The notes beneath the pieces were generated by a model. It searched no databases. It worked only from the letters and a program-made list of their open reading frames with translations, and was not told where the DNA came from. DNA of 51,699 bases from Eledone cirrhosa (lineage: Eukaryota). The stretch spans positions 1 through 51,699 of the forward strand of contig CAXHJY010001171.1 of the NCBI GenBank assembly GCA_964016885.1. Direction: 5' to 3'. Numbering within the stretch: the first letter of the stretch is position 1; each line of letters starts with the position of its first letter. Of the stretch, positions 9,030 through 51,699 are shown piece by piece. Both the position numbers and the translations under genes were made by a program.

Positions 9030-9080
9030 ATAGAAATGGCTTCTACAGGACTAGAACTGTTTCATTCGGGGAAATCATCA
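9030..9080 (-). ncRNA. 5'-truncated hammerhead (family C)
   Basis: Minus strand: TGATGA t ttc ccc gaa t GAAA cagttctag TC ctgtag; C3 and stem I 5' strand missing; family also near 33030, 37190, 44858, 46946. Confidence 0.5.
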
Positions 9081-9082
9081 TA

Positions 9083-9405
9083 TGAGGTCTGCTCTCACCA
9101 CCTCTGCCCATGTTTTCGTGGTCTTTGTCTACTGTGTCTTCCCTCCACTGGGATTTCTTAGCACTTCTTTACCCAGCAGTCATCCACCATGCACATCACA
9201 TGTCCATACCATCTCAGTCTTCTCTCCTGCACACCACAACTTATCCCTCTTATACCCAGTTTCTTTCTCAACTCATCTATGCTTGGTCGTTCACGCACAT
9301 TGACATTGCATACCCAACAGCATGCTTGCTTCATTTCTCTCCAGCTGTCGCATATCTTCTGCAGTTGCTGCTCATGTCTCACTACCATGCAGCATCGCAT
9401 ATCTC
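9083..9405 (-). mobile_element. RTE LINE 3' fragment
   Basis: MLHGSET and VQERRLRWYGHVMCMVDDCWVKKC on minus strand. Confidence 0.85.
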
Positions 9406-9698
9406 ACACACATATATATATGTATATATATATATATATGTGTGTATATATATGTATATATAAATGTATATATATATGTGTATGTATATATATATTTATA
9501 TATGTAGGTATGTATGTATATATATATGTATGTATATGTATATATATATGTATGTATATGTATGTATATGTATATGTATGTATATGTATGTATATATATA
9601 TGCATGTATGTATGTATGTATGTATGTATGTGTATGTATGTATGTATATATGTATGTATATATATATGTATGTATATATATGTATGTATATATATGTA
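9406..9698. repeat. (TA)/(TATG) microsatellite
   Basis: Direct inspection. Confidence 0.95.
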
Positions 9699-10310
9699 TC
9701 AGGTCACCAGTTGGTGCTACTGGTAACATGTATCCCAGTACAACCTGTCTCATGGTCGGGTCGTTGGCGACTAAACTGGCAACCCCACCAAGGTTTCTTG
9801 GTGAGGAGGGTGACTTTGGACATCCTGCAGGACTAAAAACAAAACCTGTCAAAGGGCAAAGGGGCTCTTAAGAGTCAATGGCCATCCAAAATCACCGGGA
9901 GAGATGACCCCTTAGCCTTTGTCAAGGCAGAATTCTAGGAGAAGGAAAACTCTGATATAACACCTGCAACCCTGATGGTATCCAATGATGTTGACTTGTT
10001 CTTCTTTTTGGTAAATATCATCTTGGTTAAGAGAGTGGGACTGGCTTTGTGCAGTGCCTTTGCTCACTATAAAAGCTTCACGGCACAGGCATTGCTTTAT
10101 ATCTGGAGATCTCTCTGCACTTGCCGTCACATGGTACCAAGGGCCCAGCACTATGTGTCAATAATTGTCACAAGTGTAGTGTTTGTACCAGAGTTTTCAA
10201 GTCGCTGGCTGGACTAAAAAGTCACACTCGTTCAGCGCATCGGTAGGGGTTCTCCTACATGGATATAAAGTAGTGGCCGTACTCGAAAACGAGTTGGCAG
10301 CCGCCATGTG
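9699..10310 (+). mobile_element. Possible LINE 5' UTR fragment
   Basis: GC-richer island between TA tracts resembling RTE leader sequences; no diagnostic protein motif. Confidence 0.25.
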
Positions 10311-10319
10311 TATGTATAT

Positions 10320-11035
10320 ATCATCATCATCGCCGTTTAACATACGTTCTTCCAGGCTAGCATGGGTTAGACAGGTTGTCTTGTGGGCAGTGTCCGGTCG
10401 GCTGACCATGTCTTCCTCATATGGCTTGATTTCTACAGCTGGATGCGCTTCCTAACACCAACCTCATTTACAGTGAGTGCTGGGTGCTTTTTTGCCGTGG
10501 CACCTCCATGACCTCTTTACAGTGGGATGGGCATATTGTCTATATGCTTCAACTACAGCTTGTACCCCTGGGAAGTCGGGTCTTCTGTATTACTGTGTGA
10601 AGCCAGAGGTCACAGTCATGTGTCATCGCCTTTGAGAGGAACAACAGGGTAAGATGAGCTTTTATCACCTCATCCCTGGTCTTCTTGGGTCTCCCCACTC
10701 CAAGGGAGGTGCTCTGCACCTTTTTATGCAGCTGTCATCCTTCATACACATCACATGCTCATACCAACGCAACCTCCTCTCCTGTACACAGCATTTGATT
10801 CCTTTTATGCTCAGTCTCTCTCTCAATATATATATATTTATATATATGTATGTATCATCATCATCATCATCCTTTTACATCCGCTTTTCCCTGCTTGCAA
10901 GGGTGGGACGGGTCCTATTCATTCAGCACAGCATCTCTCCACTTGTCACAGTCATTCGTCATCTCCTCTGTGAGCTTCAGCGATCTGAGGTCAGCTCTCA
11001 CCACCTCCACCCATGTTTTTTGTGGTCTGCCTCTT
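10320..11035 (-). mobile_element. Two RTE 3'-end fragments with (CAT)n tails
   Basis: catcatcat tails at 10321 and 10855; homologous to 3775-4145 and 21130-21300. Confidence 0.85.
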
Positions 11036-11134
11036 TATTTATTTATACATATGTATATATATATATATATATATATATATATATATATATATACATGTAT
11101 GTGTATATATATATGTATATATTTATTATATATA

Positions 11135-11728
11135 GGAATATAAAAAGCAACAACAACACAGGAGTACAAGTTACAAAAGGTATTAGGTTCACACTTAGTG
11201 AGAGTGAGGTGTGTGGGTGCCACGTTTCGGGCAGAAGCCCTTCATCTGGAGAGTGGCGGAGGGGGAACTCCGAGGGGAGAAAAAAGTAAAACATGAAGTG
11301 GAAAATATAAGTTAAAATACAAATTGTGAAAAGATGTGAGGTGTGTAGGGGTGGTGGGGTGTGGGGGTGGATGGAGGGGGAGAGAGATGGCTAAGGAAAA
11401 AAGACGTCCGTGTGAGAGGGGCGGAAAGTGAGATGTGTGTGTGTGGTAGGTGTACATGTGCGTGTATATGCGGGGTTGCGTGCTTGTGGGTTTTGGAAAA
11501 TATTGTGTATGTTGGGGTGGAGTGTATGTCTGTGTGCATGTGGATGGAAAGGGGTCAGATGGGGTGGGGCAGAGTGTACGGAATCCAGAGGCAGAATGGG
11601 TGGTCACATGTGTGGTGTGGAATGTATGGTTGTGTGTGTAAACTGTTGGTAACATCCGTGGGAATGGTGTGGAGGAAGTAGAATGTTATGGGGAGGGGGG
11701 CACAACAGGAAGTAGTCAAGGGGTGGTC
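11135..11728 (-). mobile_element. Penelope-like 3' tail with decayed HHR (11218-11258)
   Basis: Minus strand: CAGATGA a gggc ttct gccc GAAAC gtggc; core U4A and cleavage site lost. Confidence 0.4.
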
Positions 11729-48352: not shown

Positions 48353-48547
48353 CTTCTTTACAATATTAACACGTCTCATACCTTATTGATAATACTTTAA
48401 GGAATACAAGTCATTGCATGCTTTATGCCTGTTAATGACCAAAGTCAGTGGACCGATCAACCAACGCTGGAAGCAGATTTAACTTAAATCTGCTCTCCAA
48501 ACAAACACAGTCTATCCAATTGCTTTTTATGTCTCTAATAGGGTTAC

Positions 48548-48588
48548 TCCCTTGACAAAGGGTTTTTAAACCCGAAAATATTTAGGAT
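48548..48588 (+). ncRNA. Candidate minimal hammerhead, U3-A8 variant
   Basis: tccc TTGACAA a gggttt tt aaaccc GAAA atatt TA gga; weak stem I. Confidence 0.45.
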
Positions 48589-48748
48589 TTTAAAATTTGC
48601 TAAGGTAAGATTCTTTTGTTATCTTGGCAATTTAACATTCTTCATACGCATTGTTTTGGTTTTTGAAATTTTAATTTGTTTCATATATATATGATCTGAT
48701 ACTAGATGCCCTCAGATAACATTTTGTTTTTTTCTTTGATTAACAAGT

Positions 48749-48831
48749 GTGATGAGCAGATTGATGCTAGAGTCAGATTTATAACACAAATATTGACCTT
48801 GAGCCAATCATTTGTGAAACATTTGTAACAG
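48749..48831 (+). ncRNA. 5'-truncated hammerhead with long stem II
   Basis: gTGATGA gcaga...tttgt GAAA catttg TA acag; decayed relative at 47475-47545. Confidence 0.5.
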
Positions 48832-48949
48832 TTTTTAATCAATAAAAACATCCATGTGAAACGTTGTTATGTTATTCTTAATATATAATTGTTGTTAAAT
48901 GAGATCTTAAATGACATGTGAGCCCTGAAAGCTGTTTCAAGATCTGACC

Positions 48950-49800
48950 ACAAATACTGCTGCAATGTCAGCATAGGCTCCATTTTCCACTTGTTTCTTG
49001 TTTAATTGCCACTTCAATCCTCCACATGACTTGCAGGTTTTTTGTCAAGCATGGCATTGAAACTGGTCATCCTGAATGAAATTCCAATAATTCATGTGTG
49101 CTTTACCCACGTGGACATGTTGGTGCAATCTCAGACTAGTGTGAGATATGAATATTTTTATACATAAGGATCATTTAAAGAAACAACGAAAAGATATTGC
49201 TCTTAATCTCATTTCTATGCACTTTTCTTTTCATGTCAGCCTGCTTAACTGTGTCAAGCTGAAAATCCTTACCACCGTTCCAAATCATAGTTCACCATGC
49301 TTCCCTATCTGCCACAAGTGATTCAAGACTTTTCTAACATAATTTAAGACATTTCAAATTTGATTTTAAAGAGTCTTTGTATCTTTTCTTTGGCTTACTA
49401 TTTTTTCTGTTACCCACATAAGCTCACTATATAACATTTGCTTGGGAGTGTGCTCATCATCTATATGGAATGGTCTGTCCATTGTAGTTGATTCCTAATA
49501 AGTTTGGCATGGATTGATGTGATCCGAGCTTCAGTGAGAACTTCGGTGTCAGTAAGGACCAGCTAATTCTAAACATGTGGTGGAGGTATTTCTAGTGAAA
49601 TCCTTCCCACATTTTCACATGACGCCTGTATATTGTCCAAGTTTTAGAATTCAGAAATAACAAATGAGACATATACCTTGATCTTAGAGTCAGCTATAAT
49701 ATGGCACTGTGACCAGACTTTAGATTCTGGGCTGCCAAAGGCTTTTGCTGCTGTTAGAATGTGAGAACTGATTTCCATGTCTAAATTTGTTCTGCAGGGG
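48950..49800 (-). mobile_element. Old RTE (BovB-like) LINE 3' fragment
   Basis: Minus strand DDEHTPKQMLYSEL...KRYKD followed by Cys-rich remnants; heavily decayed. Confidence 0.55.
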
Positions 49801-49959
49801 CAACTTGATGAACAGTTTTTTTTTTCAAATTAATTGAGACCAAAAACATTACATATAGAATCAAATACACTAATTAGGTTCTGTAAACCTTGCTCAGCGT
49901 GATTAAGTCAGTCATCCCAAAGAGGTAAAGACTTTGGTTTTGAAGTTCAACAGATGGCA

Positions 49960-51699
49960 TCTATATACGATATATATATATACATACATATATATATTTA
50001 CATATATATATATATACATATATACATTTACATATATATATATATATATATATATATATACATTTACATATACATATATACATTTACATATATATATATA
50101 TATATATACATTTACATATATATATATATATATATATACACATTTACATATATATATATATATATATACATATATATATATACATATACATATATACATA
50201 TACATATATATATATACATATACATATATATATACACATATACATATATACATATATATATATACATATACATATATACATATATATATATATATACATA
50301 TATATATATATACATATATATATACATATACATATATACATATATATATATATACATATATATATACATATACATATATACATATATATATATATATATA
50401 CATATATATATACACACACATATATACATATATATATATATATACATATATATATACACACACATATATATATATATATAACACATATATATATATATAT
50501 ATATATACATATACATAAATATATACACACACAATATATATATACACATATATATATATATATATATACATATACATATATACATATACATATATATATA
50601 TATACACATATATATATATATATATACACATATATATATATAGAAGATCCCGTTAAGGGTGAAAGCAGCGATTCTTTGCTTAAACTTTAATCTGTTATTT
50701 TAATAAATATATATATACATAAATATATATACATACATATATTCATATATATATACATACATATACATATATATGCATATATTCATATATATACATATAT
50801 GCATATACATATATATATATATACATACATATACATATACATATATACATATATATATATACATATACATATATACTATACATATATACATATATATATA
50901 TACATATATATATATACATATACATATATACATATATATATATACATATATATATATACATACATATATATATATACATACATATACATATATATATATA
51001 TATACATATAAATATATACATTTATATATATATATATATACATATATATATATACATATACATATATATATATATACATATATATATATATATACATATA
51101 TATACATACATATACATATATATATATACATATATATATATATATATATATATATATATATTATATATATACATATATATATACATATATATATATACAT
51201 ATATATATATATATATACATATATACATATATATATATATATACATATATACATATACATATATACATATACAATATACATATACATATATACATATACA
51301 TATATACATATACATATATACATATATATACATATATATATATACATATATATACATATATATATATACATATATATATATACATATATATATACATATA
51401 TATATATACATATATATAATACATATATATATATACATATATATATATACATATATATATATACATATAATATATATACATATATATATATATAACATAT
51501 ATATATATACATATATATATATACATATATATATATACATATATATATATACATATATATATATATACATATATACATATACATATATACATATACATAT
51601 ATATATATATACATATACATATATATACATATATACATATATATACATACATATATATATACACATATATACATACATATATATATACATAAATACATA
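49960..51699. repeat. (TA)/(TACA) microsatellite with a 69-bp insert at 50642-50710
   Basis: Direct inspection. Confidence 0.97.

Follow-up and report, generated by a model that had tools for sequence, protein, structure and literature searches.

Insertions of EN+ Penelope-like elements (PLEs; Penelope/Poseidon, Neptune, Nematis, Hydra) are described as heavily 5' truncated and paired with an inverted copy that is itself 5' truncated; only one of the two arms has a tail, TA microsatellites serve as targets, and the terminal repeat contains a hammerhead (PMC8557442). Hammerheads of PLE pseudo-LTRs carry CUGANGA and GAAA boxes and a short palindromic stem III, form many divergent families per genome and occur as opposite-strand pairs 100-700 bp apart (Cervera and de la Pena 2014, PMC4209133). 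In vitro, Poseidon from Anolis carolinensis produces sharp 3' ends, some with a tail and some lacking one (Frangieh et al. 2024, PMC11167929). The same features recur in a 51,699-nt stretch of the Eledone cirrhosa contig CAXHJY010001171.1 (GCA_964016885.1), which is called the window here and supplies all coordinates (Table 1).

There are also differences. In the available text of the EN+ PLE survey (PMC8557442) the position of breakpoints relative to the ribozyme is not described, whereas in four families of the window breakpoints pile up at the CUGANGA box. The available part of PMC4209133 counts complete motifs and does not analyse copies that lack the stem I 5' arm; compared with the hammerheads described there, long stems occur in some of the families here (stem I of family E ~22 bp; stem II-loop regions up to 60 nt). 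The Poseidon study maps 3' (initiation) ends, and the portion available describes no 5' box stop (PMC11167929).

On sequence grounds, the inserts represent PLE ends that carry type I hammerhead motifs and are 5' truncated and often inverted. In the window, 13 two-armed inserts were counted in which the inverted partner is also 5' truncated, families D, B, C and E have a tail on one arm only, and by inspection most inserts end in TA arrays. A protein search matched fragment 18418-18855 to three proteins (E ~1e-17 to 1e-19). One relative of this fragment, P0003, presumably combines RT and endonuclease-type motifs, as read by eye. Fragment 33542-34009 had no match in the protein search, and Pfam scans assigned no family to the PLE fragments or their protein matches. 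Remnants of reading frames are joined to a hammerhead-like motif only in the 33150-35500 copy; within the window, the stub families have no physical link to an ORF.

Hammerhead descriptor matches with all three stems lie at 1071(-), 16100(-), 21707, 36966, 46411(-) and 46627, and they have the CUGANGA, GAAA and UH core around stems I, II and III that defines the type I hammerhead. Complementarity in stem I was found in families E, A, F and I. No hammerhead was among the best 150 of 165 matches of the window to Rfam, nor did two short stretches give any match; the motifs may be PLE hammerhead variants that fall outside the Rfam models. Rfam microRNA matches were dismissed because they lie on microsatellites and palindromes with scores below gathering. 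Monomer folding missed the hammerhead fold for most copies (z -1.8 to +0.9 in eight of nine) and is not counted as support. A non-LTR retrozyme, with tandem hammerhead repeats, was ruled out because the hammerheads sit in single or inverted arms, and the tandem arrays of the window contain no hammerhead descriptor match. A metagenome scan with a motif of family B yielded a single match, which lies in unrelated coding-like DNA, lacks a box and was attributed to chance.

Table 1. PLE-related inserts and hammerhead motifs in the window
Feature	Positions	Strand	Remarks
Family E insert	890..1477	.	minus arm from -8, intact core (1071); plus arm from -194, without -17 to ~+2
Family B arm from U4	9029..9080	-	adjoins RTE LINE fragment
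Family H arm with tail, starts at box (A at U4)	11728..11880	+	
H-related inverted insert	12600..12745	.	minus arm from loop II, plus arm at cut site
Family D inverted insert	14613..14815	.	left arm begins in loop II; right arm at G5 (14683)
Intact-looking hammerhead, family J	16020..16128	-	
Inverted PLE ORF fragment	18138..19305	.	arms 98% identical; relatives with putative RT + C-terminal GIY-YIG-type architecture
Family E insert	21365..21862	.	plus arm passes hammerhead (box 21707) from -194 or earlier
Intact-looking hammerhead, family G	26600..26770	-	
Family D inverted insert	32772..32900	.	left arm is tail only; right arm from G5 at 32835
Family B inverted insert	32940..33140	.	left arm begins immediately before GAAA; right arm at A6
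Long PLE 3' fragment	33150..35500	+	decayed endonuclease reading frames, long 3' region, hammerhead-like motif near 35418
Intact-looking hammerhead, family A	36950..37040	+	stem I 5' arm present
Family B inverted insert	37109..37290	.	both arms ~3 nt upstream of decayed boxes
Family C inverted insert	37522..37839	.	minus arm 37587 ~-4; plus arm 37634 ~-2
Family B arm	44854..44887	+	starts downstream of box, stem II 3' side
Family F young palindrome	46344..46720	.	arms 98.6% identical; intact hammerhead in both; both from ~105 nt upstream of box
Family B inverted insert	46866..47005	.	left arm 4 nt before cut site; right arm from U4 at 46946
C-related hairpin insert	48267..48448	.	turns at stem III/cut-site hexamer
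Family I hammerhead, box at 48750	48715..48880	+	
Family H arm without tail, in TA array	50642..50710	+	identical to 11729-11797

Offsets are numbered from C3 of the CUGANGA box (0), with U4 at +1, G5 at +2 and A6 at +3. Stop counts are a hand tally of insert arms within the window, and the box zone (-4 to +3) and the offsets were assigned by hand after inspection. Family members were gathered by BLAST, the presence of a box being no criterion. The tally omits a weak motif at 17591(-), the ORF palindrome 18497-19250 and the palindrome at 42757-43074, whose two arms have no box and no defined boundary. It also omits hairpins 12776-12992 and 16418-16473 and their relatives, none of which shows a hammerhead when read in sense; single stubs without recognisable features are not countable in it.

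The initial annotation listed eight inserts whose recognisable sequence begins near the CUGANGA box. All eight sequences lie where it placed them and six are clean breaks at U4 or G5; the start at 37634 is at -2, that at 48750 is ambiguous, and the clustering is family-specific. The clean starts are at +1 for 9080(-) and 46946, and at +2 for 14683, 32835, 11730 and 50643. The T at 32834 is common to the inverted arm, so the right arm was taken to start at 32835. Family H has an A at U4 in the 11730 and 50643 copies, with C at 11728; its box may be CAGAAGA, which would move its starts to 0 and +1. Starts absent from the earlier list were found at 33051-33053 (+3), where the two arms overlap through a short palindrome, at 37234(-) and ~37239 (each ~-3, the second box degenerate) and at 37587(-) (-4).

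None of the six clean-break stubs retains C3-U4 together with the stem I 5' arm. This arm and C3 are missing at 9080, 14683, 32835 and 50642; 11729 is without the stem I arm, and at 46946 the partner arm stands in its place. Upstream complementarity is non-significant in four of the six (P 0.24-0.92), and the sequence preceding 46946 (P = 0.003) and 32835 (P = 0.04) belongs to the inverted partner. With the stem I arm missing, the box-start stubs would be inert as ribozymes. The family H copies at 11729 and 50642 are identical over 69 nt with different flanks, and the family D copies at 14683 and 32835 are separate inserts with unlike left arms that start at the identical G. An 8-nt filler at 14675-14682 in the former resembles the element's cut-site region. 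The H-related insert 12600..12745 can alternatively be read as a single read-through copy with a deletion after G5. Tails of families B and D are 78% alike over 45 nt.

The cluster of stops at the box is real but family-specific. Half of the arms that reach the box (11/22 in the hand tally of the window) end at -4 to +3; eight other arms stop in stems II-III and six near the cut site. Per nucleotide, arms stop at a rate of 0.084 in the box zone, ~9 times that elsewhere; the other rates are 0.005 upstream of the zone, 0.008 across stems II-III and 0.014 close to the cut site. All 11 box-zone arms belong to four families (B, D, H and C), representing three lineages, and in the window the eight other families have no arm ending in this zone. 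Collapsed by lineage, the excess is 3/11 (P 0.03-0.04, for a zone picked after looking), and a threefold rise in the assumed background would erase it (P 0.40). No family mixes stopped and read-through inserts, including none of the five multi-insert families (permutation P = 0.010), a sorting that drops to P = 0.076 if 12600-12745 counts as read-through. Among two-armed inserts, a set assembled blind to the box, 8 of the 26 arms stop in the zone, or 6 of 13 when each insert counts once (P 0.003-0.024 against uniform spans of 80-120 nt). The earlier expectation of non-uniform breakpoints is thus borne out within families B, D, H and C, and it survives the box-blind comparison. Family B has five arms that differ in loop II and end at positions from -3 to +3, and this divergence argues against a single inherited breakpoint. 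Paired arms also often have a common boundary: both at ~-105 in family F, -4 and -2 in family C, -3 and -3 in family B, and, for the long arms of family E, -194 and between -194 and -221.

Eleven arms read through the box (1079(-), 1083(+), 21513(+), 46517(-), 46520(+), 36966, 32125, 26760(-), 16100(-), 35418 and, if so read, 48750). Family E served for a genome-wide test with RAD reads, with 21365..21862 as the reference; the stop families B, D, H and C have no intact reference copy within the window. The depth of family E is flat across the box (after/before ratio 1.00) and falls by 78% at the 3' terminus (ratio 0.21). A fraction of 0.73-0.74 of its contig depth is retained 40 nt beyond the box on the upstream side, and the box reads CTGATGA in almost all of the depth. 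Stem I of this family is stable (~22 bp, -36 kcal/mol, z -4.9). At present, the box stops are a pattern drawn from few inserts, in genomic debris of a known kind, with a negative genome-wide read test for family E.

Tentatively, as the most favoured reading though one short of probable, the box starts in families B, D, H and C may reflect a family-specific RNA 5' end at the 5' edge of the ribozyme, where RT would run off its template. According to PMC11167929, PLE reverse transcription begins internally on uncleaved RNA, at a point ~85-90 nt downstream of where the hammerhead cuts, and yields shorter products from 5'-shortened templates. Because initiation lies downstream of the hammerhead, even very short inserts contain the ribozyme. 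The template 5' end would be at the box in B, D, H and C, at ~-105 in F and at ~-195 in E, and for some arms it would be the cut site: six arms end within 6 nt of it, matching the run-off expected from self-cleaved RNA. The simplest origin of box-bound ends in unrelated lineages would be 5'-to-3' trimming of the RNA to a folded or protein-covered ribozyme. Alternatively, a start site might lie there; the D. virilis transcription start ~120 nt upstream of helix I (a sum from PMC2377424 and PMC4209133) argues against this. No data set listed as containing the queried sequence is recorded as RNA, a result that is neutral on this point. Joining of two cDNA ends would lose or gain 0-6 nt, and box-start templates, without the stem I 5' arm, would not self-cleave. 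The sorting by family, the boundaries of paired arms, the box-zone excess and the flat family E depth were all counted in favour of family-specific template ends, and two G5/A6 junctions that resemble polymerase jumps count against run-off. Splicing was rejected as the cause, since it would give a common upstream exon and the upstream DNA differs within both the D pair and the H pair. An ORF beginning at the box ATG was also rejected: by eye, a stop follows after a few codons in B and D, and the H box lacks an ATG.

Such run-off competes with an unlikely combination of ascertainment and inheritance, in which breakpoints descend from a few truncated secondary masters and a stub is identified as ribozyme-bearing chiefly if its box survives. 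The identity of the H pair, the shared starting G of the D pair and the likeness of the B and D tails fit this account, as do the marginal lineage-level statistics, with their sensitivity to the background rate, and the single stubs that escape counting. However, the excess persists in the box-blind two-armed inserts, members were collected by BLAST with no box required, and family B arms vary in both loop II and exact start. Somewhat more doubtful is that RT stalls or switches template at the box, for example where a second RNA in a dimeric complex pairs in trans with the stem I 5' arm. Six starts at U4/G5 in three families would suit such an event, and the PLE protein is predicted to be a dimer and extends both strands (PMC11167929). 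The idea of template switching near G5 keeps two single-case hints: the filler 14675-14682, taken with the two bases that follow, agrees with the element's cut-site region at 9/10 positions (null P = 0.017), and the gap in the family E arm 1083-1477 corresponds to a jump from G5/A6. A stall caused by the folded ribozyme, part of the initial annotation's main proposal, fares worse, as it should peak in family E with its strongest stem I, yet depth is flat at that box. In addition, a probabilistic stall predicts mixed families, and from the topology the stem I 3' arm, stem III and stem II would already have been copied on arrival at the box. With box stops absent from eight families and the family E depth flat, a general stall is therefore unlikely.

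Quite improbable is resolution at the DNA level, in which the element's endonuclease or end-joining would trim the cDNA back to short matches (T, AT or TG) of the kind that the box supplies. Many starts within and outside the box open with TG, ATG or AT and the arms at 33051-33053 overlap, but such dinucleotides are ubiquitous where ends are this rich in AT. Families E, F, A and G, moreover, carry the same box yet read through. The least probable account, very unlikely in our estimate, is the suggestion that selection purges intact self-cleaving copies and leaves half-ribozymes. Retrozymes are reported to be depleted from Xenopus genes (bioRxiv preprint 10.64898/2026.07.22.740005), but purging would thin every start upstream of stem I and could not create a peak. 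It is also contradicted by the intact-looking ribozymes on both strands of the window and by the family E depth that continues past an intact box; intact copies are common, and purging is therefore unlikely.

A metal-dependent cut may occur between C3 and U4. No paper on such a cut was among the matches listed in the literature search. Conceivably, though this is improbable, the retrotransposition RNA of several PLE lineages acquires a 5' end at U4/G5, within the hammerhead core, either through a second cut directed by the core or through trimming to a protein footprint. If so, processing would remove the stem I 5' arm and leave a template unable to self-cleave, and the stubs would be an in vivo footprint of a ribozyme-protein complex, giving a handle on the role of PLE hammerheads. 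This role is of interest: catalytic mutants of the PLE hammerhead insert normally in vitro and no Poseidon RNA-seq reads end at the cut site (PMC11167929), and hammerheads are missing from whole PLE clades (PMC8557442). If the 5' ends of short copies record template ends, genome sequence alone would map RNA processing sites for each family, with stop and read-through families as a natural comparison.

At 48750, ~34 nt upstream are the reverse complement of the copy's own 3' side (score 23, reached by 0/2000 random stretches), and the insert is ambiguous between a read-through copy with a 2-nt loss and an inverted arm joined at the cut site. The C-related hairpin (48278-48355) had been described as turning at the stem III/cleavage-site hexamer of its family, and its sequence confirms this.

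Many short inserts in the window share one design, recognised by self-comparison and alignments. Each pairs a reverse-oriented arm with a direct one, and both arms copy the 3' end of a Penelope-like element (PLE); one arm frequently bears a tail, and TA repeats lie on the flanks. The pattern is the one known for insertions of endonuclease-bearing PLEs (excerpts of PMC8557442), and both the elements and their architecture are already known. The arms bear type I hammerhead motifs. All three stems were found by descriptor at six sites and further hammerheads by eye (table below); the Rfam matches listed for the window and two short stretches do not include them. 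Hammerhead-bearing PLE ends were sorted into families named here A, A2, B-J and R. The outer 85 nt of one palindrome match the 3' half of the family G hammerhead, while in both arms the innermost 75 nt lack a CUGANGA box; this is possibly a captured sequence copied into both arms.

Features of the window (families are letter names coined here; offsets count C3 of the box as 0)
Feature	Position	Strand	Family	Details
Arm start	9080	-	B	at U4
Arm start	46946	+	B	at U4
Arm start	14683	+	D	at G5
Arm start	32835	+	D	at G5
Arm starts	11729, 50642	+	H	at A in U4 position; identical over 69 nt
Arm start	37634	+	C	~-2
Further arm starts	33051-33053, 37234(-), ~37239, 37587(-)			in -4 to +3
Hammerheads, descriptor	1071(-), 16100(-), 21707, 36966, 46411(-), 46627			all three stems
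Hammerheads, by eye	26760(-), 32125, ~35418
Possible natural core variant	11728-11734		H	A at U4
Possible natural core variant	35418-35424			C at U4; long PLE copy
Palindrome	42757-43074			318 bp; arms 92% identical
PLE ORF fragment	18418-18855			3 protein matches, E ~1e-17 to 1e-19
LINE reverse-transcriptase fragments	22792-24180			RVT_1 match
DDE transposase remnant	25388-26189	-		weak DDE_3 match, E 5e-4, under curated cut-off
Tandem arrays	16627-17294, 19258-19503			85- and 76-bp periods
Tandem array	13179-14177			38 bp, 26 copies
Tandem array	40812-41548			95 bp, 7.8 copies
Single dispersed copy	37314-37398			related to 95-bp unit

The initial annotation held that insert 5' ends cluster at the ribozyme core. 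A hand tally of hammerhead-bearing families covers 38 arms in 25 inserts, with approximate offsets for arms ending at loop II and the cut site; outside it lie the 318-bp palindrome, hairpins 12776-12992 and 16418-16473, an ORF palindrome (18497-19250) and a weak motif at 17591(-). Among 22 arms that reach the box, 11 stop between -4 and +3 (the box zone), in 9 of 18 inserts. The stop rate in this zone is 0.084 per nt; elsewhere it is 0.014 near the cut site (6 stops), 0.008 in stems II-III (8 stops) and 0.005 upstream (1 stop). Because the zone was chosen after looking, the following P values overstate the case. The excess over a pooled background has P ~1e-7 by arm, 0.009 by family (4/12) and 0.04 by lineage (3/11); a threefold higher background, allowing for unrecognised stubs, gives 0.002, 0.22 and 0.40. 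Seven of 22 arms stop in the box alone (0 to +6; P 3e-4, which the higher background raises to 0.09). In a box-blind set of all two-armed inserts, the zone holds 8/26 arms and 6/13 inserts (P 0.003-0.024 by insert).

The clearest structure in the breakpoint data is sorting by family. All 11 stops fall in B, D, H and C, which have no read-through arms, whereas E, F, A, A2, G, J, R and I have no stops (permutation P 0.010; 0.011 if 48750 is a stop; weakening to 0.076 if 12600-12745 is a read-through H copy). The cluster is real yet family-limited, in a small sample of known PLE debris. Among the papers listed in searches of open-licence PubMed Central and bioRxiv, no title or opening of an abstract mentions 5' breakpoints at a hammerhead box, nor do excerpts of PMC8557442, PMC4209133, PMC11167929, PMC2377424 and bioRxiv 10.64898/2026.07.22.740005 describe them.

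Six of the box-core starts originally listed are clean at U4 or G5, and none of them has a stem I 5' arm attached to an intact C3-U4. The two family D starts belong to separate inserts with different left arms. The start at 37634 lies at ~-2, and that at 48750 is ambiguous because its own 3' side is mirrored in the ~34 nt upstream. Hairpin 48278-48355 does turn at the cut-site hexamer, as had been described.

Stalling of reverse transcription by the folded ribozyme, one cause proposed initially, is unlikely as a general rule, because family E, the strongest structure (stem I ~22 bp, folding z -4.9), is read through, and because an enzyme reaching the box would by then have copied all the helix strands that lie 3' of the box. 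Selection against intact copies, also proposed, can produce no peak, and intact-looking copies are common. Template switching, with the polymerase jumping at G5/A6, stays alive because two junctions hint at such jumps: filler 14675-14682 looks templated (9/10 match, null P 0.017), and the 1083-1477 arm carries a deletion, which does not appear among the joints or gaps listed in the family E read alignment.

We favour run-off, in which reverse transcriptase would reach the 5' end of the copied RNA at a position that differs by family. The two arms of a pair often have a common boundary (F at ~-105, E at ~-195, also C and B), and six arms in the window end near the cut site. According to excerpts of PMC11167929, PLE reverse transcription in vitro initiates at an internal position 111-118 nt into the ORF, with the cut site 26 nt into it; uncleaved RNA is used, and 5'-shortened templates give shorter products. 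Our preferred guess is that RNA trimmed up to a folded or protein-covered ribozyme would acquire a 5' end at the box in three lineages. For Anolis Poseidon, whose ORF begins at stem II, the same excerpts place the binding region of the protein in the ORF's first 172 nt. It is less likely that transcription starts at the box, because the D. virilis start lies ~120 nt upstream of helix I, summing a 46-nt exon and a 75-nt intron (excerpts of PMC2377424) that ends at helix I (excerpts of PMC4209133).

A genome-wide check in family E did not bear out the box as a general breakpoint site. Contigs from three sets and reads from a single RAD run (at least 32768 reads aligned in the sample) were compared with the intact copy 21644-21853, whose box falls within one 7-nt bin. 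RAD reads begin at 21755-21758 and pass through the ribozyme; they represent only those copies that carry G at 21754 (3311/3676 such reads; ~11% of X1 contig depth), a base that we infer creates a restriction site. For pairs with a minus-strand first mate, depth going upstream runs 17118, 17058, 17234 (box), 17202, 17041 and 16716, a ratio after/before the box of 1.00, although size selection could favour long copies and second mates add some upstream depth. The listing for the box shows no pile of read ends; none of the six loose-end rows listed for this run (smallest 498 reads; 609 further rows across all runs) falls there. As a positive control, plus-strand depth drops from 8799 to 1891 at the family's 3' terminus. 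Among 15 of 43 joints listed, 0/11 opposite-strand joints have a side in the box. Contig depth is no measure of copy number, and it dips at 21686-21700, a stretch with variants private to the reference; 35-40 nt upstream of the box it is 0.73-0.74 of core depth, and the decay there, 0.005 per nt, does not exceed the downstream 0.006-0.007. The test speaks to generality rather than to the stop families, because E is already read through in the window.

The family E hammerhead (21685-21765) has an extended stem I, unusual among metazoan PLE hammerheads, and the read consensus shows its long 5' arm to be natural. Family E 3' ends cluster sharply near 21804-21811 in RAD data, where depth falls 78% and 3686 reads have low-agreement loose ends at 21809; this is probably a reverse-transcription start site, shorter than the ends of the window copies. 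One contig (run X2, record 10; 21693-21810) has depth 644, far over other X2 pieces listed; 14 nt upstream of the box it departs from the reference.

The window is AT-rich (GC 35%), repetitive, animal-type DNA with TA microsatellites, LINE fragments and a transposase remnant that we take, from its motifs, to be mariner-like. Two decayed PLE ORF fragments are present. For one (18418-18855), the longest match of a protein search has, as read by eye, RT motifs, then a cysteine linker, and closes with a GIY-YIG-type end; Pfam scans of its protein matches returned no family. The 85- and 76-bp arrays, with a common unit interleaved with TA, lie either side of an inverted PLE ORF fragment and look like repeated re-priming on a tail. 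The 38-bp array arose by growth from the inner end of a short element, which is also present as the hairpin insert 16418-16473. Each unit of the 95-bp array comprises a CTGATGA heptamer and a hairpin and failed the type I hammerhead descriptor; the array might be a decayed retrozyme-like satellite.
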